In this document: positions 20,418-38,274 of the stretch, in pieces
Layout of the letters: every line of letters starts with the position of its first letter
Position numbering within the stretch: the first letter of the stretch is position 1
The notes under the pieces: model-generated
Seen by the model: only the letters and a program-made list of their open reading frames with translations
Told to the model about the DNA's origin: nothing
Database searches by the model: none
From: Bdellovibrionota bacterium
GTDB lineage: Bacteria > Bdellovibrionota_C > UBA2361 > CALJRW01
Assembly (NCBI GenBank): GCA_041740355.1
Contig: JBGSMD010000006.1
Location: forward strand, 85,663 to 149,662
Length of the DNA stretch: 64,000 bases
Direction: 5' to 3'
Program-made: the position numbers and the translations under genes

Positions 20418-20431
20418 GTTTATATACTATA

Positions 20432-20575
20432 TATAGTTATGACAAAAACTGATTTCCGTATATTTAAAATTAGTTTAGTAATTTTTGTCATAACTATAAG
20501 ATTTTATTGTCCCTTTGGGGAATAGTAAGCCCCAACAAATAATACAATACGAATTTAATTTTTATACTTACTATA
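20432..20575 (-). mobile_element. Dispersed TATAGT-ended element, copy 2 (full length, 144 bp)
   Basis: Perfect 17-bp IR 20432-20448/20482-20498 around 33 nt, plus module B and a diverged module A to 20575. Confidence 0.85.
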
Positions 20576-20611
20576 ATATCATCAATCTAAAATTTATTGT
20601 TTATAAACACA

Positions 20612-21331
20612 ATGGCAGGGCATTCTAAATGGGCGAAAATCAAGCGCCAAAAAGCAGTTACCGATGGTCGTCGCAGTCAGACCTTTACTAGGTATCTTAG
20701 AGAGATTCAAGTTGCAGCCAAAATGGGTGGAGGGGAGTTCGTGGGTAATTCCAGGCTGAAACGTACAGTTGATGCTGCCAAGTCGATTGGAGTTCCTAAT
20801 GATAATATTGATAAAGCAATAAAACGTGGCACTGGAGATTTAGAAGGTGTAGAATACGAAGAAGTTACTTATGAAGCCTATGGGCCTGCCGGCATTGGTT
20901 TAATTATAAAAACACTAACTGATAATAAGAACAGAACCGTTGGTGAGGTACGGAATGTGCTTAGTCGTAAAGGTGGCACCTTAGCTGCTAATAATTCTGT
21001 TTCCTACCAATTCTCAGAACAGGCTGTCTGTACCTTGCCAAAAGCTATTGGTACAGAGGAGGATCTTTTAGGGATTGTTTTAGATGCTGGCGCTAATGAT
21101 TTACAGGACGCGGAGGATTCATGGGAGATATATGCGGATATGGCAGCATTTGATACCATGATGCAAGCACTCTCTAAGTTTGGGGATCAGCTTAGTGGAG
21201 AAATCCGAATGGTTCCAAAAAACTCCCTGATGGTTTTGGGGGATGATGTTGAAAAAGTAATGAGCTTACTCGATGCCTTGGATGGACTAGATGATGTTCA
21301 AAACGTCTTTACAAATTTTGATACAGAATAA
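20612..21331 (+). CDS. yebC: YebC/PmpR family protein
   Basis: MAGHSKWAKIKRQK, YEAYGPAG, TDNKNRT, DDVQNVFTN. Confidence 0.96.
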   Translation: MAGHSKWAKIKRQKAVTDGRRSQTFTRYLREIQVAAKMGGGEFVGNSRLKRTVDAAKSIGVPNDNIDKAIKRGTGDLEGVEYEEVTYEAYGPAGIGLIIKTLTDNKNRTVGEVRNVLSRKGGTLAANNSVSYQFSEQAVCTLPKAIGTEEDLLGIVLDAGANDLQDAEDSWEIYADMAAFDTMMQALSKFGDQLSGEIRMVPKNSLMVLGDDVEKVMSLLDALDGLDDVQNVFTNFDTE

Positions 21332-21333
21332 CA

Positions 21334-21921
21334 ATGATTGCTGGACTTACTGGAATAATTCAAAATATTAGTGGACAAGAAGTCGAGGTAAACGTTCATG
21401 ATGTGACTTACCTTGTGCATTGCACAACGGAATGTATTTCTAATTTTACATTAGGGAAATCAGCCACCCTTACAATACATACTGATGTACAAGAGACCAG
21501 CATTCGATTATTTGGATTCGGCGATCGCTTAGAGTCACAAGTATTTAAACTATTAATTGGTGTTAATGGAATTGGAGCAAAGTCGGGAGTTGAGATTTTA
21601 TCCCGTGTACCAAAGTTAGAATTATTAAAGTTACTAAGTTCAGGTGATGCTAACGGACTAAAAGCAATTAAGGGTGTTGGGGCCAAAACTGCGGATCGCT
21701 TAATCTTAGAATTAAAAGATAAGGTTTCCCAATTTATTGATGCTAGTCGTTTGCAAATTAAATCTGGAGTTAAAAATGTGCAAATGGAAGAAGCGACTCT
21801 TGCCTTACAAGCTTTGGGGTTTAGTTTAAAGATTGCCACTGATGCTTTAAATAGGATCTCTACGGAAAAGTTACCGAAGGACAGTGGAGAAATTGTTCGT
21901 TTGGCCTTAGCTCGAATTTAG
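21334..21921 (+). CDS. ruvA: Holliday junction branch migration protein RuvA
   Basis: MIAGLTG, LFGF, LIGVNGIGAK, IKGVGAKTADRLILELKDK, ALQALGF. Confidence 0.95.
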   Translation: MIAGLTGIIQNISGQEVEVNVHDVTYLVHCTTECISNFTLGKSATLTIHTDVQETSIRLFGFGDRLESQVFKLLIGVNGIGAKSGVEILSRVPKLELLKLLSSGDANGLKAIKGVGAKTADRLILELKDKVSQFIDASRLQIKSGVKNVQMEEATLALQALGFSLKIATDALNRISTEKLPKDSGEIVRLALARI

Positions 21922-22196
21922 CTTTTACCAACAATCTTTTTATAAACATTAAATTTATGTTTACAAGAAATGCATTGTTGTTTTTCTTCGGAATTAAAAA
22001 GAGAGGGAAATGCGATTAGTAGGGTTATCGGTAAAATTGCTATAAAATTAAATCCTAAAAAAGAAGCATAATAATTTAGTAAGACCCAAATAACTGTAAA
22101 ATTAAGACTTGTTTTAAAAGTGCAACGCAAAACAAGTAGCCGATCTGACTCGGAATAAGACTTACAACAGGGACAAGGCTGGGCTTCTTGTTTCAT
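21918..22196 (-). CDS. Small membrane protein with two CxxC pairs (zinc-ribbon/LITAF-like)
   Basis: CPCC and CISC..F motifs flank a hydrophobic hairpin. Confidence 0.5.
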   Translation of the reverse strand: MKQEAQPCPCCKSYSESDRLLVLRCTFKTSLNFTVIWVLLNYYASFLGFNFIAILPITLLIAFPSLFNSEEKQQCISCKHKFNVYKKIVGKS

Positions 22197-22435
22197 ATTG
22201 TATGATCCAACTAATAAATACTTTTGCTTCCGAATATTTTCAGATATATTAGAGTCATTAGGTAGTTATTTAGAATTTGGCTGATCTTGCATCTAAATAT
22301 TGGTAAACTAATTGCTCTTTGGTGCAGCATATCTCCGTTTTGCCAGTATTTTTATTGCGACCTCTACTCAAACTCTATAATGTTACATAAATAAAGCTTT
22401 TCAATCGTAGGGTTGATTTGCTAAAATTGTCACCA

Positions 22436-22495
22436 ATAGTTAACCCATAAAAATCCTTGATAGTTTTAGGGGAAATGTTTACTGGGTTTACTATC
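22436..22495 (+). repeat. Divergent module-A-like hairpin upstream of lipoprotein gene
   Basis: ATAGTTAACCCATAAA...TTTACTGGGTTTACTATC; same ATAGT/TTACTATC ends as module A. Confidence 0.45.
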
Positions 22496-22506
22496 TTTGT
22501 TCCTAA

Positions 22507-22926
22507 ATGGAGTATAAAATGTATAAATTTCTTAAAGTTAGTTTTCTTTGTTGTTCTTTATCAATGATTGTTGCTTGTTCTGGTAACTCATTATCCGGAC
22601 GTGATAAAGGTGTATTAGGTGGAGCTGCAATTGGCTCGGGGTTAGGTGCAATTATTGGTCACAAGACTGGCTCTACTGGAGCTGGGATTGCAATTGGTGG
22701 CGCTGCAGGAGCAATCTCCGGTGGTTTAATAGGTAATGCGCAATATGGTGCTACGAATCGTGCCAATGAACAAGATGAGCGTTTGAGAAGACAAGAGTTG
22801 GAGATGGAAAGACAAAAAAGAGAGTTAGAAGAACTACGTCGACAAGGATCCGGAGACACTTATCGCAGTGATACCTACCGTGAAGATACTTCCCCACGTG
22901 ATGACAGTTATTACGATCGTTATTAA
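22507..22926 (+). CDS. Glycine-zipper lipoprotein
   Basis: Lipobox IVAC, GAAIGSGLGAIIG..GAGIAIGGAAGAISGGLIG, coiled coil; start may be 22519. Confidence 0.88.
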   Translation: MEYKMYKFLKVSFLCCSLSMIVACSGNSLSGRDKGVLGGAAIGSGLGAIIGHKTGSTGAGIAIGGAAGAISGGLIGNAQYGATNRANEQDERLRRQELEMERQKRELEELRRQGSGDTYRSDTYREDTSPRDDSYYDRY

Positions 22927-22940
22927 TCAAATCAAATCCT

Positions 22941-22965
22941 GTTCTCTGGCTTGAGTCCAGAGAAC
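22941..22965 (+). terminator. Hairpin after lipoprotein gene
   Basis: GTTCTCTGG-N7-CCAGAGAAC. Confidence 0.5.
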
Positions 22966-23212
22966 TTCCAAATTTATTAGTGTTCCTATTCTAATGTAGA
23001 AAATCCAAGCTGTAATTTCCCAAACTCAGGTCAAAATTTTTTCTAAAATTACTTGCTGAGAATACTACATTTTACCATGCCAGTCTGATCATACACCATA
23101 AACATGGAAAATTGGAAATTGGATAAAACAGTCATTTCACTAGACTGTTAATTCTTTGTGCATCTGTTACTGTCTACTCCGAAAACGAATCATTTATTTT
23201 TTTTAAATTTAT

Positions 23213-25054
23213 ATGACAAATACAAAACCAACTTCATTTGAAGCATTAAATAACTGGGTTAATCAAATCACTACTCTTTGCGAACCAAAGAATGTTCACT
23301 GGTGTACTGGCTCCGAATCCGAATGGCATAATTTATCAGATTTATTAGTTAAAAATGGCACCTTTATTAAATTAAGCCCAACTAAGAGACCTAATAGTTT
23401 TTTAGCGCGCTCCGCGACTTCTGATGTGGCACGAGTTGAAGATCGCACCTACATTTGCTCACGTCGGAAATCTGATGCCGGCCCAACTAATAATTGGCAC
23501 GAGCCAGTCAGCATGAAAAAGAAAATGCTGGAAGTATTTCAAGGTTCAATGAAAGGACGCACGATGTATGTGATTCCATTTTGTATGGGACCACTAGATT
23601 CACCACTTGCTCAAATTGGAGTTGAGATTTCAGACAGTCCATATGTTGTGCTGAATATGAAAATCATGTGCCACATGGGGGAGAAAGTTTTGAATCGTTT
23701 ACAGGACGAGGCTGCCGGGACTATTGATAAAAAAAGATTTTCACATGGAACTTTTATTCCCTGTGTTCACTCAGTTGGTATGCCATTAGCAGATGGAGAT
23801 GTAGATGTAGCCTGGCCTTGTAACGAAGAAAAATACATTGTTCATTTTCCAGAAGATCGTGAGATCTGGTCTTATGGTTCTGGCTATGGAGGAAATGCAC
23901 TTCTTGGGAAAAAATGTTTAGCACTGCGTATTGCATCTAATATTGCCCGTGAGAATGGTTGGCTTGCTGAACACATGCTGATCGTTGGGGTTCATTCTCC
24001 AAAAGGAAAAACTAATTACTTAGCAGCAGCTTTTCCTTCGGCTTGCGGCAAAACTAATTTAGCAATGTTAATTCCTCCTAAAAAGTTTTTGGATGAGGGT
24101 TGGAAAACAACAATTGTTGGGGATGATATCGCCTGGCTTTGGCCTCATGAGGATGGCAAGTTACATGCCATCAATCCTGAAACAGGCTTTTTTGGAGTAG
24201 CTCCAGGAACATCTTACGATACTAATCCGATTGCCATGGATTCTATGAAAGAGAATACTATTTTTACAAACGTGGCTTTAACGGACGATGGAGATATTTG
24301 GTGGGAAGGAATGACGAAAGAGCCACCTGCTCATTTAATTGATTGGACGGGACTGGATTGGACTCCTGATTGTGGTCGCTTATCATCACATGCAAATTCT
24401 AGGTTTACAGCTCCGGCCATGCAGTGCCCAACGATTGATGCCAATTGGCAAAATCCTGATGGAGTCCCGATTGATGGGATCATGTATGGTGGAAGACGGG
24501 CAACAACAATGCCTTTAGTTTTCCAAGCTTACAATTGGAGTCATGGAATTTATTTGGGAGCCACTATGGGGTCTGAGATGACCGCTGCAGCAGCTGGGCA
24601 AATTGGTAAGGTCCGTCGTGATCCGATGGCGATGTTGCCATTTTGTGGTTACAACATGGGTGATTACTTTGGTCACTGGTTAGATATCCGAAAACAATTG
24701 AAACATTTGCCTCGTTTCTTTCATGTCAATTGGTTCCGTAAGGATCAAAATGGAAAGTTCCTCTGGCCTGGATTTGGGGACAATATGAGAGTCATTAAAT
24801 GGGTAGTTTCTCGTTGTAATGGTGAAGCTGTTGGTTATGAAACTCAGATTGGTTGGATGCCTAAATTTGAAGACTTTGACATTGAAGGTCTGAATAATTT
24901 TGATGAAAATAAATTCAATCAATGTATGGAATTTAAGCGTGATGAGTGGAAAGCGGAGCTTGCTAGTCAGACTGAATTCTTCATTGATCTCTACGATCAT
25001 TTGCCAAAAGAAATAGTCTTTCAAAAAGAATTATTAATAGCAAGATTAACGTAG
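23213..25054 (+). CDS. pckG: Phosphoenolpyruvate carboxykinase (GTP)
   Basis: [51 protein letters not shown]. Confidence 0.98.
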
Positions 25055-25062
25055 ATGTTTAT

Positions 25063-25207
25063 TTTAGTAAGTCTAAAAAGTAGTTCCCCTAAGGAATTAC
25101 TTTTTGGGGCTTACTATCCCCCCAGAAGGATAAAATATAGGAACGCAAGAAAATTCCATAGAGTTATATTAGCTATTATCTTGCCAGTTCTGGTAAAGTC
25201 TTACTAG
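25063..25207 (+). mobile_element. Dispersed element, copy 3 (A+B clear to 25140, C degenerate)
   Basis: TAGTAAGTCTAAAAAGTAGTTCC...GGAATTACTTTTTGGGGCTTACTATCCCC matches the other copies; lies between convergent genes. Confidence 0.8.
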
Positions 25208-25212
25208 TCAGA

Positions 25213-26514
25213 TTAGCTATCGCTTAGTGCGAGCTCAGCCTCAACTTCGGATCTTCTACTGAGCGCTGCAGAGAAAGCCTTGGCATGATCTACTGCTGGT
25301 TTGCGTGTTTCCTTTGTTGTATTTGGAATTGCATTTTCTAAATCTACTTCTACTGGTTTAGTTAAATTGATTTGTGGCTCTTCTTTAAGTGCCGTAATTG
25401 TATTTAGCGTTTCTGTTAACTTAGTAGATTCTAGACTAGAATGGGGGACATCGGTAGCTACCCTACTAGAAGTATTGGCAATCGGGTTAGCTATTTCTTG
25501 TTCTTGCTGATAGCTACTCTCTAAGGGAGTTGCTACTTTTAATTCATTAACAGTATTTAATGTTTCGGATAATCTAGATGCTTGCTGAGCAGATATCGAC
25601 AAGTCGGAATCCAATTTAACACTTGTCGTGTTAAGTATAGGATTTGCAAGACTTTGTTCTTGTTCAAGAGTTGTTGCAGTTCTTAAACCCGTAACTAACT
25701 CAACGCTCTCTGCTAATTTTGTAGCTTCTTGATTTGCAACAGAAATACCAGTATCTAATTTCACAGCGGAGGAATGAGCAATTGGATTAGCTTGCTCTAG
25801 TCCTTGTGCTTCAGCATTTGTCCCTTGAATTCCATTAATTGTTCCAATACTTTCGGCAAGTTTAGTAGCCTCCTTAGTTGATAAGCCATTTGCTTCTTTC
25901 CAAGGCATACCAAGACCTAATTCATTGGCAGCAGCAAGTTTTAAATCATCTTTAATTACAATTGTGCTCTCTAGAAAAGCTTTATTTGGATCAATTAATA
26001 CCCCAAGCTTTTCTAGCTCAATATTAATATTACCCATTAATTTTTTATGGGCCTCAGGATCCAAGACTGGAACTTCAGGATTAGGTGCAGATCTGACAGA
26101 TTCTTTTTCAACTTTGGAATTTAGTTGCATTGCAGGATCTAGTTCTTCTAATTGTCTAATTACCTGGCTGGCAACATAATGAGCATCTCGCTCTTGCTGA
26201 TCTCTCCAAGTCATTTGCTTTTCAAAAATCTCTGATTGGGTGGCAGGCTGTGCTAACATTGATTCCACATTAGCTCCAACCTGACTGCTATTAGTCGTAA
26301 TAGTTTGACTGCCACTAATATCACTTCGTTGTAGATTTTGTGCAGAAACTGTTAGCCCTTGCAGACTATTCTGTGTTGCCTGCATGTCATAGGGATTAGA
26401 TCTAATTTGGGCGATCGTATTTTGAATAGCTGTAGATAATTCTGGGTCAAACTGCCGGCTAGTTGTTTCGGAAACTGATTTTTCAACAGGTTTATCAGGT
26501 GCAAATAGTGTCAT
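25213..26514 (-). CDS. Hypothetical protein with four ~48-52 aa internal repeats
   Basis: Repeated EATKLAES...ANPI....VKLD units; Ser/Thr/Gln/Glu-rich; no signal peptide. Confidence 0.8.
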   Translation of the reverse strand: MTLFAPDKPVEKSVSETTSRQFDPELSTAIQNTIAQIRSNPYDMQATQNSLQGLTVSAQNLQRSDISGSQTITTNSSQVGANVESMLAQPATQSEIFEKQMTWRDQQERDAHYVASQVIRQLEELDPAMQLNSKVEKESVRSAPNPEVPVLDPEAHKKLMGNINIELEKLGVLIDPNKAFLESTIVIKDDLKLAAANELGLGMPWKEANGLSTKEATKLAESIGTINGIQGTNAEAQGLEQANPIAHSSAVKLDTGISVANQEATKLAESVELVTGLRTATTLEQEQSLANPILNTTSVKLDSDLSISAQQASRLSETLNTVNELKVATPLESSYQQEQEIANPIANTSSRVATDVPHSSLESTKLTETLNTITALKEEPQINLTKPVEVDLENAIPNTTKETRKPAVDHAKAFSAALSRRSEVEAELALSDS

Positions 26515-26615
26515 CGGAATCTTAACTAAAGAAATAACTATTCTACCTATCGATCAAACCCTAAAGTTTGCTTCTATTTTTTTTGAAATATTTTAATAGG
26601 GACAACTGATTGAAA

Positions 26616-28586
26616 TTATTCAAAAAATTCTAGTTCAGCAATCGACCAATCAAAAAATGGGTCATTTCCTCCTTGTTCCAAGCGTATTTGCTTTACTTTG
26701 ATTGGGTTAAAATAAAAGGAATAACGACTCTCACTTCCTAGGAGATAACGAATAAAGTAGTAATCGCTCCCTGAGATTAGTGGCCTCCTATTGTCCTTCT
26801 CATCAATAATCCAGATTTGTAATTCCCGAGGATAGTCCGTAACCCAATCTGCTAGGTGGTAGGTGAAGGCGCGTAAACTTTGTGGCTCTGGAAAATTAAT
26901 TTCCATAAACATTGTTTGGTTCTGAGGACTAGCCGATCCCCAGCGAGTTTTAAGATCTTGATCCAGTACTTGCTTAGCAACAGCCTGGTTATAGTTTGTC
27001 TTAAGCACTACATTTTCAAAATTAGTTAATTTAAGTAGGTCGGTTTGTTTAGGTTTGATTTCATAAAAAACAAAATATTCGGAAAGTATTTTTTCTTGAT
27101 ATGTATACCCTTGGATCTCCAAAGATTTTCGCAACATTCCAGCCTGAGATTTTACCAAGACATAGGGAGCTTGACTCCGATGCGGTTCTCCTTCCTTCTC
27201 ATACTCCGGCATACGACTTCGAAAAGGTTCATCAAAAACTAGAAAACGAATCTTTTCTTTGGTTTCAAATGCTAAACGATAGCCAATCCAATAATTAGTT
27301 TTAACCCACTGGAAGTTATTCTGATCTAACCAATCAATTAACTCTTGGTGATTGGCACTGGCACGATCAAGTGCTTTGATTAGCGGTTCTTTGGCATTGT
27401 TTCTTTCGGGATAATAGGTTGAAACTAAATTAATGCTTATCAGCAAGGTTAGGAGAAGGTAAGCAGGTACTTTTAAATTTTGTGACAATTTGGCAAGGAT
27501 ACAGCCTGTTAAAACAATTAGTGGGAAGTAAATTGGTAAGAGGTAACGAGGAGCTTCTGCTAAGTGTCCATAACTACTAAAGGCTACAATTATAGCCATT
27601 AGAACGATCATTAAGAAAAGAATCTCCTGTGGTTTTTGCCAGTCAAATTTTAATATTGTAAGTTTGAGAAGATCTAAATAACGATATCCAATATAAAGTA
27701 GCGTTAAAAGAAAATAAATTAAGATCACGAAAGTGGTTGATCCAAGATAGGAGTCCTGAAAAGAGGCAAAGTTTCTAGCCCCAAGTAAAATTGGCAGAGA
27801 AATGTCAAAAAATTTCACCAAATATTCCCAGCTTTTTCCACCTTCGGCGGAGGAGAAAATTTCCTTACTAGCAAAATTGTTTTGGAGATTATAAATCCAA
27901 AAAGGTAAGGAGCCCAATAAAAAACAAAGAACTGACCAGAAAAATAGTTGGATTGTTTGTAAAAATCTCAGACGGTGGATGGCATAACCCAGAACACTGA
28001 GAAATACAGGAACCATAAAGTAGATGACTTGGTTATTTACCCACCAACCAAGTCCGAGAAGTACTGCAATTAGACCAAGATTTTTAGCATTTACTTGATC
28101 ATATTTAAAAGATCGAATTAGCAATAAAATTGCTAAACTTCCAATCACAATAACTTCAATAAAACCACCACGAGCTTTTGTGCTCCAAAGTACTAGTGTT
28201 AGTGGGGGAATGGCAGCAAGTAATCCAGCAAAACGAGCAGCAAGTTTATTACTAACTTCAAATGCAGTTAGGTAAGTTATTAAAACTAAGGCTAAACTAA
28301 AAGCGAGTGGAACATATTTTAAGGTGTAATTTTCCAAGCCTATAAAAAGACCAAGGAAGCTAATAAGAATTGCTTCTAAACTTCCCATGTAATGTTGGCC
28401 ATAATAGAAGATTGGCCAGGGTTTCCCTTCGCTAATGTGCTTGGCCATCAGGCCAACGATTGCTTCATCTGATTCGATGGCAAAATGACTGGCAATGACC
28501 AAATCCATTCGTAAAATAACTGCGTAGATTAGAATCAGAGTAATAAATAGCCAGTCTTGTTTGATGATTGTTTTAAGTGGCAGCAT
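26616..28586 (-). CDS. GT-C fold glycosyltransferase (ArnT/PMT-like) with C-terminal discoidin-like domain
   Basis: ESDEAIVGLMA..YYGQHYMGSLE after TM1; multi-TM; C-terminal DQDLKTRW..WSIAELEF. Confidence 0.82.
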   Translation of the reverse strand: MLPLKTIIKQDWLFITLILIYAVILRMDLVIASHFAIESDEAIVGLMAKHISEGKPWPIFYYGQHYMGSLEAILISFLGLFIGLENYTLKYVPLAFSLALVLITYLTAFEVSNKLAARFAGLLAAIPPLTLVLWSTKARGGFIEVIVIGSLAILLLIRSFKYDQVNAKNLGLIAVLLGLGWWVNNQVIYFMVPVFLSVLGYAIHRLRFLQTIQLFFWSVLCFLLGSLPFWIYNLQNNFASKEIFSSAEGGKSWEYLVKFFDISLPILLGARNFASFQDSYLGSTTFVILIYFLLTLLYIGYRYLDLLKLTILKFDWQKPQEILFLMIVLMAIIVAFSSYGHLAEAPRYLLPIYFPLIVLTGCILAKLSQNLKVPAYLLLTLLISINLVSTYYPERNNAKEPLIKALDRASANHQELIDWLDQNNFQWVKTNYWIGYRLAFETKEKIRFLVFDEPFRSRMPEYEKEGEPHRSQAPYVLVKSQAGMLRKSLEIQGYTYQEKILSEYFVFYEIKPKQTDLLKLTNFENVVLKTNYNQAVAKQVLDQDLKTRWGSASPQNQTMFMEINFPEPQSLRAFTYHLADWVTDYPRELQIWIIDEKDNRRPLISGSDYYFIRYLLGSESRYSFYFNPIKVKQIRLEQGGNDPFFDWSIAELEFFE

Positions 28587-28702
28587 TATTTATAGTGTGT
28601 TGCAAAGTCTTTGCCGTAACCTAGCCATAGCAAGTCTATCCATTATGGTTTTTATGGTGAAAAATTGAAGTTTTTTCAGCAAGAATTTTTTGAAATTTAA
28701 TA

Positions 28703-28847
28703 TATAGTGAGTCCAAAAGGTAATTTCCATTGGGAATTACTTTTTGGGGCTTACTATCCCCCGGAGGGATAATAAAATCATATAGTTATGACAAAAAATA
28801 CAAAACTTACTGTTAAACATTCGAAAATACTTTTTGTCATAACTATA
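28703..28847 (+). mobile_element. Dispersed TATAGT-ended element, copy 4 (reference, 145 bp)
   Basis: Module A hairpin 28703-28757, module B TATCCC-CCGGA-GGGATA, module C 17-bp IR 28781-28797/28831-28847 around 33 nt. Confidence 0.9.
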
Positions 28848-28861
28848 TATATTAAATAATA

Positions 28862-29833
28862 ATGTCCTCTATATTAGTCTCAATTATAATTCCTGTCTAT
28901 CATTCGGAGTTAACGCTTCCCGGCTGTTTGGAGTCGATTAATAATCAGGATCATAATAATTTTGAGGTCATTATCATTGACTCGGAGAGCTCACTAGATA
29001 CTCAGGCAATTTCCAGAATTCAAAAGGCTAGTTACTACAATATCGAGTTTAACAATATCGCGGCCAAGCGTAATTTTGGAGCGTCAAAAGCTGAAGGTAA
29101 GATTCTATTGTTTTTAGACTCAGATTGTCTTTTACCAGAAGGTTTTTTTGATAGCATTCAAAGTATCTTTCAAGATCAAGAGATTGTCGCAGCTGGCTCT
29201 CATGATTTTGATTTACCAGCAGATAGTCACTGGATTAATTATGCTTGGCAAGTTCATTTTCAAGTCTGGTCCAAGCAGAATACTTCTTGGATCCCAACTC
29301 GTTGCTTAGCTGTCCGGCGCAGTTCCTTTGAGCAAGTAAAAGGATTTAATGAACAGTTGATTACCTGTGAAGATGTTGATTTAGGATATCGTTTGAATAA
29401 TTATGGTCGTATCCTTAATTCAGATCGTTTGAAAATTACCCATGTTTTAAATCCCAAAAATCTTGGTCAGTTTTTTATGAAAGAACTTTGGCATGGACTT
29501 AATAGCTTATCAATTAGTATTAAAAATCGATCCAATTATAAAGAAATTATTTACTTAATAATTCCAGTTTATTTTGTAGGAATGTTTTTACTTTTATTGC
29601 TTACAGTTTATCAGTTTGTATTTTTGTTCAGTTATAGTGCTTTAGTATTATTGGTAATTGGTATGCTGCCGGCAGTTATAATGTCACTTTATACCGTAGC
29701 AAAGCGAAAACAATTTCAGTATTTTCCAGGTCTTTCAATTGCTTATTTATTATACTTAATGGCTAGGGGAGCGGCTGCTTGCAAGTTATACTCACCGCTT
29801 TTCATTTTTGAGAAAAAAAGAAAAGAAAGGTAA
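28862..29833 (+). CDS. Glycosyltransferase family 2
   Basis: VSIIIPVY, EVIIID, RNFGA, LFLDSD, GFNE...EDVDLGYRL; C-terminal TMs. Confidence 0.93.
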   Translation: MSSILVSIIIPVYHSELTLPGCLESINNQDHNNFEVIIIDSESSLDTQAISRIQKASYYNIEFNNIAAKRNFGASKAEGKILLFLDSDCLLPEGFFDSIQSIFQDQEIVAAGSHDFDLPADSHWINYAWQVHFQVWSKQNTSWIPTRCLAVRRSSFEQVKGFNEQLITCEDVDLGYRLNNYGRILNSDRLKITHVLNPKNLGQFFMKELWHGLNSLSISIKNRSNYKEIIYLIIPVYFVGMFLLLLLTVYQFVFLFSYSALVLLVIGMLPAVIMSLYTVAKRKQFQYFPGLSIAYLLYLMARGAAACKLYSPLFIFEKKRKER

Positions 29834-30049
29834 CCCGAAGGGGGAGCGAGGATAACGAGTCCCGGCGAGCAAAATCCTGGCGCCTTGTCCGCCGTAGCTT
29901 TAGCGAAGGTGGAAGACAGGTTTTGCCGTAGAAAATGACACCTAAACCCTACGCAGTTAAGTGGTGAGTATTGGTTTTGTCTTTTACGGCGTAACTTGGC
30001 TATCGCCAAGATTACGCTCGCCCTTGGCAAATTTCATTTGCGAAGGGTT
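29832..30049. repeat. GC-rich multi-hairpin element containing a TCCGCCGTAGCTTTAGCGAAGGTGGA palindrome
   Basis: At least four internal inverted repeats closed by AACCC/GGGTT; GC far above background; lies between convergent genes. Confidence 0.7.
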
Positions 30050-30074
30050 TAATTTTCTTTGGAAAAACTAAGCC

Positions 30075-31124
30075 TTACAGAGCGGCTAAATTAATGGCAC
30101 GGCCTTTTTTGATGGTGATCATATCTTCAATCCTTATTTTGAAACCATCAACAGTTATTTGAGGTTCTAGGCAGAACACATTAGTTTCTTCAAATTTCTG
30201 ATTATTACTTTCAAATGTAATAAAAAACGGAGGTTCATGTAGCTTGAGGCCAATAAAATGTCCTAAGTCAACAATGTTTAGCGTTTCTGCAGGGAGTTTT
30301 TGGCGGGTCAGCTCTCGTTTATAGTGCGTTTCGAGATCAGCACAAAGCATTCCTGCTTTAATCGAAGATATTACGTTTTGATGGGCAAGTTGAAAGCGGA
30401 GCAGTACTTCGGAAGTTTCTCCGCCGACTTGAAACATTCTTGTACAATCAGTAAATAAACCATCTTTAACTATGCCAGCATCAATACAAACATACTCTCC
30501 AAGTTTTAATTCACGATGGCTGGCAGATAAAAAAGTTGATTCTATTAATCTGTCGCCAGAACAGACAATCGGATCGAATGCTAATGAGTCGGCATTTTCT
30601 AAGAGTCGTAGTTTTAAAGTTTTTTCAAGCTCAAGTTCGGTCATGCCTGGTTGGATCCAGCCGACAGTTGTTTCTAACATTGACTTGAGGCTTTTATAGA
30701 TTTCGGAGAGTTGTTTAATTTCCTGAGGATTCTTTTTCCTTAACATTGGCCAGACAGTTTCGGTTAGGTCTAAAATTTCTGCCGGAAGCCCAAGAAAATG
30801 GGAGAAAGGAGCTGAGCCTAATACTCCAATCTTTTTCCAATTATTACCAATTTCATTTAGAAAATTTCCATAGACGTTTTCATCAGAGACAGCGATCACT
30901 TTCATTTTGGATCGTTCCTTAAGGTCGGCAACCTTATATTCTACTTCAAAAAAACCGTGATCATCTAATGTGCAGAAAAAATAATGACCAGCGGAACGAC
31001 AAGTGGTGCCAGTAAACGCTTTGGACATTGATGTTTCAAAACGAGTTGAATAAGCCAGGATAATATCTAATTTATGAGTAACGAGGATTGCTTTTAGAAC
31101 TTGAATTCTTTCTGGGTAATTCAT
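30075..31124 (-). CDS. M24 family peptidase (Xaa-Pro peptidase-like)
   Basis: IDAG...FTDCTR, GHFIGLKLHEPP, EP, RIEDMI. Confidence 0.88.
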   Translation of the reverse strand: MNYPERIQVLKAILVTHKLDIILAYSTRFETSMSKAFTGTTCRSAGHYFFCTLDDHGFFEVEYKVADLKERSKMKVIAVSDENVYGNFLNEIGNNWKKIGVLGSAPFSHFLGLPAEILDLTETVWPMLRKKNPQEIKQLSEIYKSLKSMLETTVGWIQPGMTELELEKTLKLRLLENADSLAFDPIVCSGDRLIESTFLSASHRELKLGEYVCIDAGIVKDGLFTDCTRMFQVGGETSEVLLRFQLAHQNVISSIKAGMLCADLETHYKRELTRQKLPAETLNIVDLGHFIGLKLHEPPFFITFESNNQKFEETNVFCLEPQITVDGFKIRIEDMITIKKGRAINLAAL

Positions 31125-31295
31125 GTTGAGAACTTCAATCTTGGATATGTTAGATAGATCTTAAAAAATAATTTGACTAAAGAAAATTATATTATCCACA
31201 TATTGCTTTGTTAAGTACATACTGACAATAGTAATTACAGGTTTTAGTAAAAGAGTTAGATCTTGAGCCAAATGCGAGCAATGCGAAATGCATTT

Positions 31296-31985
31296 TTACA
31301 TAATTATAGATAAAGGGTCGGGATGAATTATTTGCAGATTTTCTAATAAATCCAAAGAACAATATCCATCAAGATCTACGAGTAAACGTTCCTCTTGAAT
31401 TAGTTTGTTTAGGTAAATTAGTTGAACTGCCTGAATATGAAGATGTGGCCACCAATTGCCATTCCACGGAGCGGCGCCAATTTCTCCAATAATTTGTCCT
31501 TCTCTAATATTTTCACAAAGACCTACTGAAATATTTTGCAGGTGTGAGAAGATCATGGCGAATTCATTGTTTTTCTCAGGTTGAATGATTAGCCTTGGTC
31601 CCCAACCTCCGTTATAATCTTTTTCATCATCAATCAGTAATGCTTTTCCATTAAATGGGCTGAACACCTTAACTCCCACGGGCAGGTTAATATCAATACC
31701 CAAGTGTATAAAAGAAGATGTTTCCTTTTGATATCCACCAGCAAGTAAGATTGATCTGTCTTCGAGGTATCCACCAAAAGACCATTCGGCATCCATTGAT
31801 TTATGAGCTTCTTTGATCATTTCCCAGCTAATCAAGGGATTTAATAATTCAGCTTGGGCTAATTTAGGGTTTTGTTGTGTTAGCCATCTTCTAGCAAAGG
31901 TATCCAAGTTTATTTCACAAATCTGTTTTTGAGCAAAATCAGGAAATATCTTGAATAGCTTCTTTTGGTTAGGGTTCTTCGCCAT
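31296..31985 (-). CDS. M23 family (LytM) peptidase-like protein, no signal peptide
   Basis: HLGID (HxxxD), FSHL, NGNWWPHLHIQ (HxH). Confidence 0.82.
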   Translation of the reverse strand: MAKNPNQKKLFKIFPDFAQKQICEINLDTFARRWLTQQNPKLAQAELLNPLISWEMIKEAHKSMDAEWSFGGYLEDRSILLAGGYQKETSSFIHLGIDINLPVGVKVFSPFNGKALLIDDEKDYNGGWGPRLIIQPEKNNEFAMIFSHLQNISVGLCENIREGQIIGEIGAAPWNGNWWPHLHIQAVQLIYLNKLIQEERLLVDLDGYCSLDLLENLQIIHPDPLSIIM

Positions 31986-33113
31986 TTAATATTCGTAAAT
32001 ATTACTGCTAAAATGTAATAGTCCTAATTCGCAAGCAATGTTCTTTGAAAGATGATAGTTGCGTCGGCAGAGTTGATCTTCGCTATCATCGGGGAAAACA
32101 GGTGTGCAGGCAACTTCACATAAAATTGGGCCACTATCGATTCCTCGATCAGAGAAATGAAATGTGGCTCCGGTGTATAGTTTTGGTGACTTACTCAGAT
32201 TAAAGCTTGCGGAGGATGTTTCGTTATCTAAACCTTGAACTAATTTTATAATATCATTATAGGGGTCTTTCCCTCTACAGGCAAAAGCATAATCTTCTCG
32301 GATTATTCCTGGATGAGTATTCATAACAATCGTAGACAAAGGAGATTTCGGATCGACTAAGTAATCCAATTTTGCCATATAATGATCAGTAACTAAGACG
32401 TCAGCATTTAGTTCTAACAAAAGATTTGCTACGCGTGTTTCAAAATCTAATTTTCTTTCTTGGCGTGCTAGCGAATCTTGCATGGGCAATTTCCGAAAGT
32501 CAGAAGGTAAATTATAGCAAAGATCTCGCGCATTCTGGTGTTCGCTGGCGCGTAGGTTCTTGGGAAAGATCCATTGCCCAGCACTGGGCAATTCGCCAAA
32601 AGGAGATTGTTGAAGATCAATCGGCAGATCGTCGCTTATTATTCCTACCACTTCACAGAATCCATTTAATCTGCCAGAAGTTGTGGAGCGGAGGATATGC
32701 TCAATTGTTCCTTTTAGATAACGAGCATATTTGATTTCTCCATTTCGGAGCCCAACTTTTTCATCGGCCCCGACATCTCGAATTGAAGTTAAAAAGGCAA
32801 TCCTTAAAGGGCGAGATGGAACTTTAAATGTTGGTGTAGACTCGGAATAAAATAGTGTAATTCCAGTACTGATTGTAGCAAAGGATTTAGGCGCTGAGAG
32901 AAGTAATCTAGAGGATTCTGAGTGTATTTGACGGAAGCTTGCCCCATTTAAGGGATGTTCCAAGAATGAAGGATCTGGTTCTGTTGGTGTTTCTGCAGCG
33001 AGATGAAGTTCATGACTGACCTTTGACAATCGTCCTAAATCTGGATGGTTTAGGCAACAATAATCTGGGGAAGAGATGATTCCAGATTCAAAATCTTGAG
33101 CAGTGTTGTGCAA
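31986..33113 (-). CDS. Formyltransferase-domain protein (PurN-like, extended)
   Basis: NTHPG, TGATFHF.DRGIDSGPIL; TTG start with AAGGA RBS. Confidence 0.78.
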   Translation of the reverse strand: MHNTAQDFESGIISSPDYCCLNHPDLGRLSKVSHELHLAAETPTEPDPSFLEHPLNGASFRQIHSESSRLLLSAPKSFATISTGITLFYSESTPTFKVPSRPLRIAFLTSIRDVGADEKVGLRNGEIKYARYLKGTIEHILRSTTSGRLNGFCEVVGIISDDLPIDLQQSPFGELPSAGQWIFPKNLRASEHQNARDLCYNLPSDFRKLPMQDSLARQERKLDFETRVANLLLELNADVLVTDHYMAKLDYLVDPKSPLSTIVMNTHPGIIREDYAFACRGKDPYNDIIKLVQGLDNETSSASFNLSKSPKLYTGATFHFSDRGIDSGPILCEVACTPVFPDDSEDQLCRRNYHLSKNIACELGLLHFSSNIYEY

Positions 33114-33203
33114 TTCCTTTAGTTTTCCTCAAAAGTGTAAAAATCAAAAAATCCTTATACCAAAAATCTCAGAGTATGCAAGGGGTTAGGGGTTTTTAAT
33201 TTA

Positions 33204-35423
33204 CTATATCCCATAGCGTTTACCACCACTAATCTTTTCTTCAACCGGCAGTTCAATTACAAAGCGGGTTCCATGTGGTTGATTTTCAAAAACCTTAATT
33301 TTACCCTGATGATCAGCCACAATCGTCGCCACGATGGCTAGGCCTAAACCACTGCCATCAGCTTTGGTTGTAAAGTAGGGGTCAAAGATCCGTGTGCGAT
33401 CTTCGGGAGTAATGCCTGTCCCATTGTCTGAAATTTCTAAGACAGCAAGGCGTGCAGTGGATTGTTTGGTAGTAATTTTTACTAAACCATTTTGTGGTTT
33501 CTTTAATTGTACTGCGGAGATGGCATTATCAATTAGGTTAGTCAGGCAACGACGAAACTGTGCCGTGTCTAAAGCGACTGGCTTAAGTCGGGGGTCGGTG
33601 TCTAAGGCTATTTTGAAATTAATTTGCTTATTTTCATAAGACTGGAGAACTTCGACGATTAGTTCGTTAAGATCGGAACTTGTTAGTTCTGCTAATGGTA
33701 AACGAGCAAACTTGGAGAACTCATCAATTAGAACTCTGATCACCTCAGTGTTTTGCAGAATTGTTTCGGCTGCTTTTTCCCTTTGTTCTAAATTAAGCTT
33801 GTCACCTTGTTGGATAATTCTCTGTGCTGAAAGTTTAATGGGAGTTAAGGGGTTTTTGATTTCATGAGCCAAGCGTCTCGCTGCTTCACGCCAAGTAGCA
33901 ATTTTCTGAGCATGAATCAAATCGCTGATATCGTCAAATAAAATTACTGTGCCTAATTCTTGTTCATTTTGATTAATAACCTTACCAATCGTTACAATGA
34001 TTTCTTTAGGCTGATTATTGATCTGACAAGTAATTTTTTTCTGAACAATATCAGAAGTAAGATCTTGATAGCGTTGCTTTAACAAAAAAGGGACAATAAA
34101 ATCATGAATTTTTTGAAAATTAGCAGCACTAAGTAATTGCTGCATGTTTAGATTCTCGGACTGTTCCAAATGATAATCCGGGAAAAGTCTTCGAGCGGCT
34201 TGGTTAGCAGCAATCAGTAAATTATTTTGATCGAGTCCAATAACAGCAACAGATAAGTTATCTAAAATAGTTTCCGTGTAAATTCGGCGGAGATTTAACT
34301 CTTCTTCGCTCGTTCTTAAATCTTGGACCATCTCATTAAATGATTCTGTGAGTTCACTAAGTTCATCATCCCCTTGAGTTGTAATTTGAATTTGATAATT
34401 GCCAGTTGCAACCTCTTTTGTCCCGGCAGAGAGTTGTCTTAGTGGCTCGGAGATTTCTCTTGCTAAATAAAATCCAATCCAAATGGCTGAGAATAAAATA
34501 ATTCCAGTAATAATTGCTAATGTCAGCAGGTAGCTAGCTTTAAGCGGTGTTTTGAAAGTTTGAAGCTGGCCGTATTCTTTAAAGCCGCTTTGAATTGCCT
34601 CTAAGCTGCTAGTGATTTCCGGATCGATCCTCCTTGTTAAAACGACGACAATCTCTTGACTATTATGAGTGACTTGTTGATAGAGGCGAATAAATTGGTT
34701 GCTACCACTATTCTCAATTAAGATTCGTTGAATATTCTTGGTATCGGGAAAATTATTTTGATTTATTTTGGGCTCAGCTAGATCTGGAATCTCATTGACG
34801 ATACTTCGATCGCTTGTAAGCTCTAAACCTTCCAGCGTATAAATTCCAAAGGAGAATAATTGTTGTTTATTCCGTAATTCGGCTAATAGTTCTTTAGTCG
34901 ACTCTTCGTTATCAAGTAGGTTGAAACTATTCTTGACGATCGAAATAATTTGTTGCGAATCCTCGAGCAAGCTTTGTTCTTCTTGTTTAATATATGTTTG
35001 TGAAATAAATAAAGCATTGGTAACGACGGAAGAAACTTGAGCATTAAACCAACCGGAAGTTGCCCTAGAGATTAGGCCTGTTGCCAAGAAAAACATAATT
35101 AATGTTGGGATGAAGGTTAGCAATAAAAAAGCACTAACAAGTTTTTGTCGCAGTTTTGATCCAAGGATTTTATTGCGGCGATCTAAGAAAAGTTTAATTA
35201 AATTTCTTCCAACAACAAAACCTAAGGCAATTAGCAGTAATAAGTTGAAGTTAAATAGACCAACAATAAATATGCTTTTGGATGATGTGCCAGTTAAACT
35301 TTCTGGTTGGAGGAAAAGAATTGAGAGCGCGACTACTAATGTTAGTAAAATAAAAATTGACCAGCGCTTAGTCAGGCTCATACGGAGCCAACGCAGAAAA
35401 GTTTGCAGTGCGTTTTTAATCAT
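33204..35423 (-). CDS. ntrY: NtrY-like sensor histidine kinase (HAMP-PAS-HisKA-HATPase)
   Basis: GSKLRQKLV..F, WREAARRLAHEIKNPLTPIKLSAQR, DNGTG, PYFTTK, GSGLGL. Confidence 0.88.
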   Translation of the reverse strand: MIKNALQTFLRWLRMSLTKRWSIFILLTLVVALSILFLQPESLTGTSSKSIFIVGLFNFNLLLLIALGFVVGRNLIKLFLDRRNKILGSKLRQKLVSAFLLLTFIPTLIMFFLATGLISRATSGWFNAQVSSVVTNALFISQTYIKQEEQSLLEDSQQIISIVKNSFNLLDNEESTKELLAELRNKQQLFSFGIYTLEGLELTSDRSIVNEIPDLAEPKINQNNFPDTKNIQRILIENSGSNQFIRLYQQVTHNSQEIVVVLTRRIDPEITSSLEAIQSGFKEYGQLQTFKTPLKASYLLTLAIITGIILFSAIWIGFYLAREISEPLRQLSAGTKEVATGNYQIQITTQGDDELSELTESFNEMVQDLRTSEEELNLRRIYTETILDNLSVAVIGLDQNNLLIAANQAARRLFPDYHLEQSENLNMQQLLSAANFQKIHDFIVPFLLKQRYQDLTSDIVQKKITCQINNQPKEIIVTIGKVINQNEQELGTVILFDDISDLIHAQKIATWREAARRLAHEIKNPLTPIKLSAQRIIQQGDKLNLEQREKAAETILQNTEVIRVLIDEFSKFARLPLAELTSSDLNELIVEVLQSYENKQINFKIALDTDPRLKPVALDTAQFRRCLTNLIDNAISAVQLKKPQNGLVKITTKQSTARLAVLEISDNGTGITPEDRTRIFDPYFTTKADGSGLGLAIVATIVADHQGKIKVFENQPHGTRFVIELPVEEKISGGKRYGI

Positions 35424-35970
35424 TTAGATTTAGGTGAAATTTTTTCCAACCAGTACTAAAACCACTCAGTCGTAATAAGCCAAAGCTTAGGTAATAAGAC
35501 AGTTCCTCTAGTGTTTTACTATATTCACCTCGACATTCAGAAAATGCTCTTGTCTCCAAATAAGAATTAGACGTTAGTTTTATTTTAGGAAATTGTTCTA
35601 AATTTAAATTTTTGATTGCTCTTAGCGCAGTTAAGGCATCTTCTCGCTGGTCATAAGTTTGTCCTTCGGGTAGTCTTTGATCGCGATGCAAATCAGTGAT
35701 CATCTGATAAGAGTTACTAATTGGATTCCAAGATAAAAAATGAGTTTCAACAATTTCCTCGGAGCAGTCATTCCAAAATGAATCTGAGTCGCAAATTTTT
35801 AATTCAAATCGATAACGAATTTCTTGTCCATTATTAAGGCAATCATTTACAATCTCATCCTTGCCACTGACTTCTAATGAGAATACTTTTGGATTTTGAT
35901 TAGAATGTTGGACTGTTAGTTCAGGGCTAGCAAATAAAACAATTAGTGGGAAAACGAGGTAGGCTAGCAT
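35416..35970 (-). CDS. Exported protein, DUF4390-like
   Basis: Signal/TM N-terminus, NGQEIRYRFELK, LSWNPISNSY, C-terminal TGW; conserved position upstream of ntrY. Confidence 0.6.
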   Translation of the reverse strand: MLAYLVFPLIVLFASPELTVQHSNQNPKVFSLEVSGKDEIVNDCLNNGQEIRYRFELKICDSDSFWNDCSEEIVETHFLSWNPISNSYQMITDLHRDQRLPEGQTYDQREDALTALRAIKNLNLEQFPKIKLTSNSYLETRAFSECRGEYSKTLEELSYYLSFGLLRLSGFSTGWKKFHLNLND

Positions 35971-35979
35971 TAATATAAT

Positions 35980-37038
35980 TTAAAAATTTTCATTAAATGA
36001 GTTTTTAGGAAGAACTAAGCCCAAGTGGGTATATGCTTCTTCGGTCACGACTCGTCCACGAGGCGTTCGTGCTAGTAATCCAGCTTGAATCAAGAAAGGT
36101 TCGTAGACATCTTCGATTGTTTCTCGCTCCTCGGAGAGTCCAACTGCTAGGGTTTCAAGTCCAACCGGACCACCTTTAAAGTTTTCTATAATAATTTTTA
36201 ATAGTGCCCGATCCATTTGAGTCAGACCCAGCTGGTCAATCTCTAATAAGGACATTGCGCCTTGTACCGCACTGCTATTAATTTCTCCAGTTCCTTTTTC
36301 TTGTGCAAAGTCACGGACACGTTTTAAAATCTTATTGGCAATTCTTGGGGTTCCTCTTGAACGTTCACCAATTTCCAAGGCGGCATGTTCTTCAATACTA
36401 ATTGCTAGTAACTTAGCAGATCGTAGCACAATCTGTTGCAGTTCTGTAGGAGAGTAGAATTCCAGCCGTGCAGTAATACCAAAGCGATCGCGCAGCGGGG
36501 AAGTCAGCATGCCAGATCGTGTTGTCGCGCCAATTAAGGTAAATGGTTTAAGGGGAATCTTAACTGACTTTGCCGCTGGACCTTGGCCAATTAAAATATC
36601 TATTTCAAAGTCTTCCATTGCCGGATAAAGCACTTCTTCCACAATTCGAGGTAAACGATGAATTTCATCAATAAATAAAACTGAATTAGCTTCCAGGGAA
36701 GTTAGCATTGCAGCTAGGTCTCCTGGTCGCTCAATCACTGGACCTGATGTGCTTTTAAAATTTGTACCTAATTGGTTGGACACTATCCGGGCAAGAGAAG
36801 TTTTTCCAAGGCCGGGTGGTCCATAAAGTAAGACGTGGTCTAGTGGTTCAGAACGATTTTTTGCAGCTTGGCAGGCGATTTGGAGATTTTCTTTGGTTTT
36901 ATCTTGACCAATGTAATTATCAAATGCTGTTGGGCGAAGTTTAATAAAGGTAGCTTCTTCAGAATTAAGAGGAAGATCGTCGACAAGGTCAGTGCTTAGC
37001 CAAGTGTTGATCTCTTCTGAATTATTATTAGTACTCAT
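35980..37038 (-). CDS. ruvB: Holliday junction helicase RuvB
   Basis: [42 protein letters not shown]; ATG 37038 preferred. Confidence 0.98.
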
Positions 37039-37089
37039 TTGCAGAGTATACACTGAAAAGTAGAAGCTTTTCCAGCTACCAAAGAATCC

Positions 37090-37132
37090 AGCCCGCATAA
37101 ATCATCCTTATCACTGATGAATTATGCGGGCT
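37090..37132. promoter_or_regulatory. Inverted repeat between ruvB and divergent ORF
   Basis: AGCCCGCATAAATCATC...GATGAATTATGCGGGCT. Confidence 0.4.
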
Positions 37133-37180
37133 AGGCAAAGTTCAAATTGACTTAGGGTTAAATCTCAGTATTCTGATCTA

Positions 37181-37417
37181 ATGATCTACCATACCCCAGG
37201 TACTGAATATTGCCCAAGTGACTACAAGCAGTTGCTGGCCTTGTTTGATAATAAAATGAGTATTGATCTTTACTTGTTTAAAGGACCAGAAAGTGTTGTT
37301 TTGCTAAAAAAAGCACTCGATGAGGGCCATTTACAGGAAGCTTCAACCAGTGGAGGAGCCAGAAAATTACTTTATATGACTAAAATGGGCCGTGAATATT
37401 GGCAGTCGACAAAATAG
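37181..37417 (+). CDS. Small hypothetical protein (winged-helix-like end)
   Basis: 78 aa; RKLLYMTKMGRE resembles the wHTH wing motif LTxxG. Confidence 0.45.
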   Translation: MIYHTPGTEYCPSDYKQLLALFDNKMSIDLYLFKGPESVVLLKKALDEGHLQEASTSGGARKLLYMTKMGREYWQSTK

Positions 37418-37551
37418 CCCAAGGTATAGCATTATATGGTAACCTCCACAGTGTAAGAAATAATTTCTCTTACTTGGGAAAGTGCCCTCGGTTAGTTTCT
37501 CCTGATTTTGGTTTAATATGCCCCTGTTGTTGTTATCAATTTATTAAAGAC

Positions 37552-38175: not shown

Positions 38176-38274
38176 GTAGCTAAAAGATTAATCATCTATT
38201 ATAAACTTATTAGTAGTAAATTCTGAAACTGACCACTAACTGACAATCTAATAATTGGCTAAAATAATTTCTTC

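Follow-up and report, generated by a model that had tools for sequence, protein, structure and literature searches.

A four-arm MITE family in a Bdellovibrionota genome and its probable IS630-family partner

The 145-bp repeat at positions 28703-28847 of the window, by which we mean the whole 64,000-nucleotide stretch of DNA that was analysed (G000:C6:85663-149662, G000 being the genome to which it belongs), is most likely a non-autonomous DNA transposon, or MITE, moved in trans by a resident transposase of the IS630 family (Tc1/mariner superfamily). We put the probability of this reading at about 0.88. The initial annotation of the window had already proposed a MITE moved by an IS630/Tc1-type transposase, and the proposal draws support from a genome-wide census of the repeat, from the matching ends of an insertion sequence (IS) in the same genome and from empty sites that are compatible with insertion at TA. 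In the mechanism that we favour the transposase would bind the inverted repeats, excise the element and paste it at a TA, which would be duplicated, as is established for the IS630 family through ISY100, nearly all of whose insertions are at TA, with duplication of the dinucleotide (PMC2170065, sections consulted); the targets here would be TAs in A/T-rich intergenic DNA. Each of the four arms of the element would resemble a transposase site and any inward-facing pair of arms could serve as ends, which would explain why free A units, free C units, 55-bp minis and the full 146-bp form all occur. We infer that the transposase binds and moves the MITE, and movement may still be going on.

Anatomy and copies of the element

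The copy at 28703-28847 begins TATAGTGAGTCC, finishes GTCATAACTATA and carries its arms in alternating orientation, in the order aL>, <aR, cL>, <cR (Table 1). Hairpin A (28703-28757) contains one G-T pair and, on the + strand, one bulged G, and the small hairpin of module B is the best-conserved part of the element in its diverged relatives. In module C the arms cL and cR are spaced by a loop of 33-34 nt, and the inner ~15 nt of cR are both a direct repeat of inner aR and the inverted counterpart of inner aL. The four related 17-bp arms of the initial annotation are confirmed, as is the agreement of the A and C left arms at 13 of 17 positions; the outer inverted repeat is longer than had been described, extending over ~27 nt, with 23 of 27 positions of the left end matching the reverse complement of the right end in the family consensus. 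The outermost TA of TATAG...CTATA is read here as duplicated target, which would make TAG...CTA the mobile core.

Table 1. Copies of the element in the window and modules of the copy at 28703-28847
Feature	Position	Strand	Evidence	Neighbouring genes
Complete 145-bp MITE copy	28703-28847	+	nhmmer E ~1e-41, model 1-146	655-aa ORF with no Pfam family, 26616-28586 (-); family-2 glycosyltransferase gene, 28862-29833 (+)
Left terminal arm aL, 26 nt, TATAGTGAGTCC...TTTCC, left terminal inverted repeat (TIR)	28703-28728	+	matches IS630-family IS ends	
aR, inverted copy of aL; with aL forms foldback hairpin A	28732-28757	+	fold, pair counts	
Module B, small G+C-rich hairpin TATCCC-N5-GGGATA	28755-28771	+	sequence, fold	
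cL, 17-nt inverted copy of the outer right end	28781-28797	+	exact match, fold	
Right TIR (cR), 27 nt; outer 17 nt pair with cL as hairpin C	28821-28847	+	sequence, consensus	
Complete copy	20432-20575	-	nhmmer 20432-20574, E 3e-29, model 2-146	PBP1 gene, 17994-20417 (-); YebC-family gene, 20597-21331 (+)
Complete copy, subfamily with inner arm ...TTTACGTAA	39085-39231	+	nhmmer E 2.5e-33, model 1-146	lies upstream of smc, 39399-42692 (+)
Truncated copy, modules A+B and first 8 nt of cL	8050-8135	-	model 1-86	
Truncated copy, modules A+B only	25065-25134	+	model 3-74	begins ~10 nt past the PEPCK stop codon
Marginal relic of hairpin A	4383-4432	+	nhmmer E 0.016	
Marginal relic of terminal arm	63864-63891	-	nhmmer E 0.071; 17-mer with 1 mismatch	

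All five clear copies that had been claimed for the window are real by alignment and by nhmmer, and the TATAG...CTATA ends of the three complete ones are borne out by the alignment and the sequence. One span was too long: of 25063-25207 only ~70 nt (modules A+B) match the element and the remainder is unrelated. The 17-nt C arm occurs seven times in the window with up to two mismatches, as against 0.07 expected occurrences from 100 shuffles. The previous estimate of roughly one copy per 7 kb was too high, since five clear and two marginal copies in the window amount to about one per 9 kb and the genome as a whole, with 185 loci in 3.27 Mb, to one per 17.7 kb. The ORFs of the window are housekeeping genes (e.g. 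ruvA, ruvB, PBP1, GTP-PEPCK, smc, ftsY), and none of the 54 that reach 100 aa matches a transposase Pfam family, in agreement with the earlier statement that the window holds no transposase. To the left of the copy at 28703-28847 lies a 105-nt segment that also starts TATAG; it was considered as a second family and rejected, being single-copy by nhmmer on the window.

The genome-wide search with the consensus, which had been recommended as a check, was carried out on the G000 draft (3,272,965 bp in 74 contigs, 97% complete) with an HMM of 146 positions built from 66 full-length genomic copies, and gave 319 nhmmer matches at E <= 0.01. Hairpin A is matched on both strands, being similar to its own complement. 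Merging of the matches gives 185 loci, covering 22,625 bp or 0.69% of the genome and falling into two main subfamilies. Both ends of the model are reached at 122 of the loci; 21 of these lie at contig edges and may represent one graph node counted repeatedly, which leaves 101. Complete copies are 144-148 bp long, and at least 17 contig ends of the draft fall inside copies. The 95 distinct complete copies have a mean pairwise identity of 76% and include two main clusters, one with 36 copies and the other with 29; for 23 of the 95 the nearest neighbour is at least 97% identical, and the family thus looks recently active and may have spread in recent bursts. No ORF of relevant size was found in the copies. 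Among 105 copies, 70 start with TATAG and 78 end with CTATA. The Correia elements of Neisseria also start with TATAG.

Shorter forms with TATAG...CTATA-like ends of their own are found at separate sites in G000. They comprise about eight 55-bp "mini" elements, in which the left and right inverted repeats stand back to back (e.g. C12:11795, C48:69284), A-only units (e.g. C46:72188, C51:141063), A+B forms (e.g. C64:25637) and C-only units (e.g. C65:1897, C6:14083). That A-only and C-only units stand alone with such ends supports the previous description of the element as two small TIR units joined by a hairpin. The derivatives fit a design of four alternating arms in which any inward-facing pair acts as ends, and loss of the DNA between the direct repeats of aR and cR fits them too.

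Insertion sites and the resident insertion sequence

Insertion sites are species-specific between G000 and G001, a sister species of the same genus. Positions 19500-39499 of the window are syntenic with G001:C8:23986-42931 at ~75% identity, and the G001 stretch was compared complete save for 186 nt. The element is absent from it at all four covered window sites: the copies at 20432-20575, 25065-25134 and 39085-39231 are each missing from the syntenic site or region, and since the compared stretch contains no element at all, the same holds for the copy at 28703-28847. In the reverse comparison 17 G001 copies were taken, nine of which have both flanks collinear on one G000 contig, and none of these nine testable sites is filled in G000; of the other eight, L068 has its flanks in inverted order, and the rest have flanks that map on one side only or to separate contigs.

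Sites left empty, with one TA, had been named as a further check. Three comparisons fit them, and no site is common to the two species. At the site of the window copy G001 reads CATTATT-TA-TATTAGAT and the window CATTATT-TA-[TAG...CTA]-TA-TATTAAAT, the insert of ~250 nt consisting of the unique 105-nt TATAG-starting segment and the element. In the opposite direction, contig C2 of G000 reads CATAT-TA-TAGGAG where the G001 copy L071 reads GATAT-TA-[TAA...CTA]-TA-TAGGAG, and a paralogous filled/empty pair within G000 (C13 versus C64:80439) also fits duplication of TA. Duplication of the 2-bp TA is the simplest reading and is compatible with all three comparisons, which lie in TA-rich DNA at 70-87% identity and would accommodate alternatives. 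In the three positions that flank 105 copies on either side, A/T makes up 86-91%, as against 64% genome-wide, with no further fixed base. Neighbouring elements often abut with TATA in common, as is to be expected if the TA inside the CTATA end is itself a target. Of sequencing runs there were three of DNA, from one study, and none of RNA; over 24500-29700 their contigs break inside the element, none joins as an empty site, and one contig from a second sample spans the left junction, all of which is uninformative on polymorphism and expression.

The search for an IS630-family transposase bracketed by the same arms, likewise proposed at the outset, led outside the window to a 1,209-bp IS. A family search of the 97%-complete genome finds a single DDE_3 locus, G000:C8:19378-19791, inside an open frame of 322 codons that continues up to the end of the contig. 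The C-terminal DDE_3 match is strong (E 2e-32, 112.5 bits against a cut-off of 28.6), and N-terminal matches to HTH_32/28/23 (E 4e-5 to 8e-5) lie below the Pfam cut-offs; by these DDE_3 and HTH matches the IS is placed, as a predicted member, in the IS630 family. Past the transposase stop codon C8 carries the IS end TATAGGGAGTCCAAAAAATAAATTACGT, while the end of C10 carries the opposite IS end TATAGTAAGTCCAATAAATAAATTACGT together with the start of the gene; the two contigs overlap by 141 identical bases and so give the full IS, with the ATG at IS position 142. The two ends of the IS start TATAGTAAGTCC... and TATAGGGAGTCC..., and its terminal inverted repeats, each 28 bp long, agree at 24 of 28 positions. 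The left 141 nt of the IS recur at the ends of contigs C12, C38 and C48 and the right ~140 nt at those of C9, C11 and C18. Counting C10 and C8, four distinct left and four distinct right junctions imply at least four IS copies; the copies are collapsed by the assembler, and all eight junctions start with TATAG after unrelated flanks.

The ends of the IS and of the MITE match at 24-27 of 28 positions. The closest is a MITE variant found at several contig ends, whose left end differs from the right end of the IS at a single position of 28, and the main subfamilies differ from the IS ends at four. In the 36-copy subfamily there are four differences on each end, and the inner 16 nt of the right end are identical to the IS; the outer 12 nt of the MITE right end (TATAGTTATGAC) differ from both IS ends (…AGTCC) at four of seven variable positions. 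The similarity stops after ~31 nt, and the MITE is therefore not a simple internal deletion of this IS. Moreover, folding of the IS ends reveals no foldback; since both ends of the MITE have one, something beyond a plain inverted repeat is kept in the MITE.

Across the order the element was detected in five of 91 genomes, namely in all three of the family to which the window belongs and in two of the four genomes from one genus of a different family. A DDE_3 gene or fragment is present in four of these five, intact in G000 and G002 and broken in G003 and G045, and this co-occurrence counts for the IS630 reading; the fifth, G001 (94% complete), has at least 30 matches to the element and no DDE_3 match, which counts against it. 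The transposase homologue of G002 is 70% identical, and its IS has perfect 27-bp ends, TATAGTAAAGAC...AATTTCCG, starting TATAGT. Copies in G002 and G003 are three-hairpin composites of ~155-200 bp with hairpin A and a CCCCCGGAGGG core, whose C arms have a different yet self-complementary sequence (...TTATCCCAA / TTGGGATAA...); G002 also has a 56-bp two-end mini. The family had been called lineage-specific, which has to be widened, since diverged three-hairpin relatives exist in another genus of this bacterial family as well as in one genus that belongs to a different family. An exact scan for the 21-nt A/B junction over 185,579 species' genomes (one each, G000 excluded) found four places, all in one MAG, and shows an apparently restricted MITE family. 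A distant-mode search of plasmids gave no match. In viral contigs, 60 loci from two 17-mer scans were dismissed as chance, none of them having more than the seed under the family HMM.

Folding, genomic placement and alternative readings

Could the element instead be kept mainly as a structured nucleic acid that the host uses, a three-hairpin RNA or DNA signal such as an RNase III or processing site, a transcript stabiliser or a protein-binding cruciform, with mobility that is old or incidental? We regard this as improbable, even though the structure itself is conspicuous. Both strands of 28703-28847 fold better than shuffles (z -8.1 and -7.0), and the A-B-C layout persists in the diverged relatives with their altered, self-complementary C arms and recurs in a second MITE family of G000 that has an unrelated interior and the same double-foldback design. 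RNA.alifold returned no consensus structure for the 95 copies, and the pairs used are those in the majority sequence as folded: 90% of cells in these 43 consensus pairs are canonical, and double-sided changes that keep pairing occur at 14 of them, for example A-T to G-C at pair 14-43 in seven copies and G-C to T-A at pair 89-138 in 23. However, slid-partner controls show 16-22 such pairs, and the double-sided changes trace to few subfamily founders. Mismatches common to whole subfamilies are tolerated, 24 copies having T-C at pair 86-141 and 20 having A-G at pair 90-137, and a variant B core (GCAAGCG) in 23 of the 95 copies is predicted to be unfolded. Since the changes mostly mark subfamilies, the controls show as many and mismatches are tolerated, we read the pairing as largely inherited, the evidence of selection for structure being at most weak. 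The placement of the copies fits selfish behaviour. With 2,594 ORFs of at least 100 aa (84% of G000) as gene proxy, the copies avoid genes, the midpoint falling in an ORF for only four of the 185 loci. Full copies number 34, 30, 21 and 16 where the flanking genes are oriented --, -+, ++ and +-, respectively, classes that make up 29%, 30%, 27% and 14% of intergenic length; their distribution thus roughly follows the intergenic length of divergent, tandem and convergent gaps. Neither convergent nor downstream gaps are favoured, and in tandem gaps the orientation bias is weak (35 versus 20). Terminator-like sites were looked for and none was found, and promoter-like sites (4 versus 2.9 +/- 1.8 in shuffles) are not in excess. 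The sites are not conserved between species either, nor does a structured-RNA family account for the repeat: the whole window has no Rfam match at the gathering threshold, so that a match to an Rfam family, which the initial annotation had named as evidence against its proposal, did not turn up, and an E-value search of 28650-28900 returned sub-threshold hairpins only (best mir-548, 21.7 bits against a threshold of 90).

Two further readings keep the mobility and change the enzyme. Hairpins in alternating orientation recall BIMEs and REPINs, and G000 has six Y1_Tnp loci, five of them over the Pfam cut-off, with ORFs of 324-341 aa; it is nonetheless extremely improbable that the repeat is a hairpin element like REPs and REPINs or of the IS200/IS605 type, with a Y1 transposase moving it in single-stranded form. 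Its arms are A/T-rich 26-27-mers rather than G+C-rich palindromes of 20-40 bp, they lack the GTAG or CGTC tag that defines most REPs (PMC3733652, in the text consulted), and the nearest copy is 9.6 kb from a Y1 locus, the other loci being at least 37 kb away, so that the REP/RAYT model fails both on the tag and on a Y1 gene within 9 kb. An IS of the IS630 family, on the other hand, does have these ends. The MITE may also have been moved by some other transposase, unassembled or lost, for example an IS630 relative with ...ATGAC-type ends like those of G002, in which case its likeness to the resident IS would reflect shared ancestry. The outer right end is indeed closer to the G002 IS end (TATAGTAAAGAC...) than to the resident IS, one subfamily of G000 has an inner arm (...AATTTCCG) that resembles the G002 IS ends and not the resident type (...AAATTACGT), and G001 has copies in a genome where no transposase matched. 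Against this, the one DDE_3 locus is the only one in a 97%-complete genome, and the largest subfamily, with 36 copies, has the inner arm of the resident IS on both ends. We consider this explanation very unlikely and prefer a MITE that is moved by the resident IS630-family transposase.

Relation to known elements and significance

The repeat is shorter than 200 bp, as bacterial MITEs generally are (PMC3184786, PMC2229807), contains no transposase gene, and has TIRs, dispersed intergenic copies and filled and empty sites compatible with TA. These features match the definition of bacterial MITEs given in the same two sources, as far as consulted. As in IS630-dependent, RUP-like elements, they are accompanied by an IS with matching ends, by a DDE_3 domain with sub-threshold HTH matches and by TA next to the ends. 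RUP of S. pneumoniae is a 107-bp intergenic MITE of ~100 copies that inserts at TA and whose inverted repeats resemble those of IS630-Spn1 in the same genome (PMC2229807), and our assignment of a partner follows from matching ends and a TA target as it does for RUP. Sequence and host are unrelated, however, the contiguous TIR pairing of RUP extends over 9 bp as against ~27 nt here, and neither four arms nor free-standing sub-units are described for it in the consulted portion of PMC2229807. With the Correia (NEMIS/CREE) elements of Neisseria, which measure ~104-157 bp in shorter and longer forms and have 24-bp TIRs, a terminal TA and a target duplication (PMC2229807, PMC3184786), the present family shares size classes, long TIRs and the terminal TA, a likeness that is by description only. 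For the Correia elements, comparison of filled with empty sites and differences between strains led to the inference of mobility (PMC2229807, PMC3184786), and an IHF site and functional promoters have been reported for them; here a candidate cognate IS630-type IS is present in the genome.

The partner IS resembles ISY100 of Synechocystis in its build of ~1.2 kb, with one transposase of HTH and DDE domains and with TIRs. The MITE differs from IS630-type ISs in lacking a transposase gene, and its likeness to its partner is confined to the terminal ~31 nt. REPs, BIMEs and REPINs are likewise dispersed intergenic hairpins that alternate and form larger structures (PMC3733652), but the MITE arms start TATAGT[AG]AGTCC or TATAGTTATGAC, are A/T-rich, carry no GTAG/CGTC tag and lie at TA-type sites. 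The Coxiella QMITE1 and QMITE2 families, of ~50 copies and largely in intergenic or 3' regions, have variable direct repeats of 2-3 or 7-11 nt, and QMITE2 carries a GTAG REP (PMC5896051, as excerpted), whereas the present MITE would target TA and has ends that match an IS630-type IS. In the literature searched, 12-mers of the arms matched unrelated papers only, and no account of this MITE family was found.

This is a real, abundant and well-preserved MITE family with an identifiable IS630-type partner, and it leaves the understanding of MITEs unchanged. Its interest is that of a clean bacterial case, a high-copy MITE together with a likely cognate IS630-type transposase in one genome, for which a 2007 review, in the part consulted, offers only RUP among the classic bacterial repeats. 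As such it is a test system for how an IS630/Tc1-type transposase handles ends with extra, inverted candidate binding sites, for how sub-units of composite MITEs become independent elements and for how far such repeats break assemblies of uncultured bacteria.

Further work may be worthwhile on one feature, the conserved design of double foldbacks and four arms. The arrangement in which each end is directly followed by an inverted copy of itself is preserved in two MITE families of G000 with unrelated interiors and in the diverged relatives from another bacterial family, and it is conceivable, if rather doubtful, that these MITEs require it. In that case four-site, cruciform-prone ends may give the MITEs an advantage over the IS, perhaps by attracting more transposase or through cleavage as extruded hairpins. 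The element would then be a kit of mobile sub-units that splits itself and re-joins, for which the literature examined holds no description among IS630-type elements.

Surroundings of the window copy and two copies in the sister species

The 105-nt segment that adjoins the window copy of the main MITE, the ~146-bp four-arm repeat, is single-copy in the source genome (G000), and the syntenic empty site in the sister species (G001) lacks both this segment and the element. For hairpin A, which is formed by the left terminal arm of the element and its internal inverted copy, the top sub-threshold Rfam match was the mir-548 precursor model (window 28705-28756; 21.7 bits versus a threshold of 90, E 0.06); we interpret this hit as coincidental, the hairpin being A/T-rich. 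Among the G001 copies, L068 has flanks that map to G000 in opposite orientations with ~3 kb between them, which places it at the breakpoint of an inversion that distinguishes the two species. In L077, a nested insertion of ~210 nt with inverted ends of its own splits hairpin A.

Features of the window and of the two genomes
Feature	Location	Remark
105-nt segment	window 28598-28702	TATAG start; directly left of main-MITE copy 28703-28847
Dispersed repeat, ~270 bp	window 29783-30052	
L068, main-MITE copy	G001:C60:106975-107117	compared with G000:C5:15805-21046
L077, interrupted main-MITE copy	G001:C54:208740-209094	
Six paralogous Y1_Tnp ORFs	G000:C16:249549, C51:22273, C51:14303, C26:27811, C63:206275, C13:65399	
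Second MITE family, exemplar	G000:C16:47627-47791	

Repeats in the draft assembly

Contigs of G000 overlap at repeats by exactly 141 bases, as at C10/C8 and where C2, C5, C6 and C7 begin, and the interior of the IS630-family insertion sequence proposed to move the main MITE was assembled in one version that serves at least four junction pairs; the copy numbers that the draft gives for repeats and for the IS are therefore lower bounds or partly duplicated.

Other dispersed families

The ~270-bp repeat, with 109 BLAST pieces across G000 and matches on C24, C27 and C54 of G001, contains a G+C-rich palindrome (CCGCCGTAGCTTTAGCGAAGGTGG-like) and may represent a REP-like family linked to Y1 transposase genes. 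Six paralogous G000 ORFs of 324-341 aa match Y1_Tnp in part (IS200-like or RAYT-like), over the Pfam cut-off in five cases; no main-MITE copy was found near any of these six loci.

A second MITE family, ~165-230 bp long, occupies ~35 further places in G000 besides the exemplar (C26:61983, C69:6019 and C54:27161 among them). Some of its copies harbour nested G+C-rich hairpin inserts, and palindromes resembling that of the ~270-bp repeat are nested within copies of this family. Its interior is unrelated to the main MITE; its layout is the same, with foldbacks at the left (...GAGTCC) and at the right (GTAATGAC...GTCATTACTATA) enclosing hairpins in the middle, and its end is the 28-nt end of the IS with two to three mismatches.
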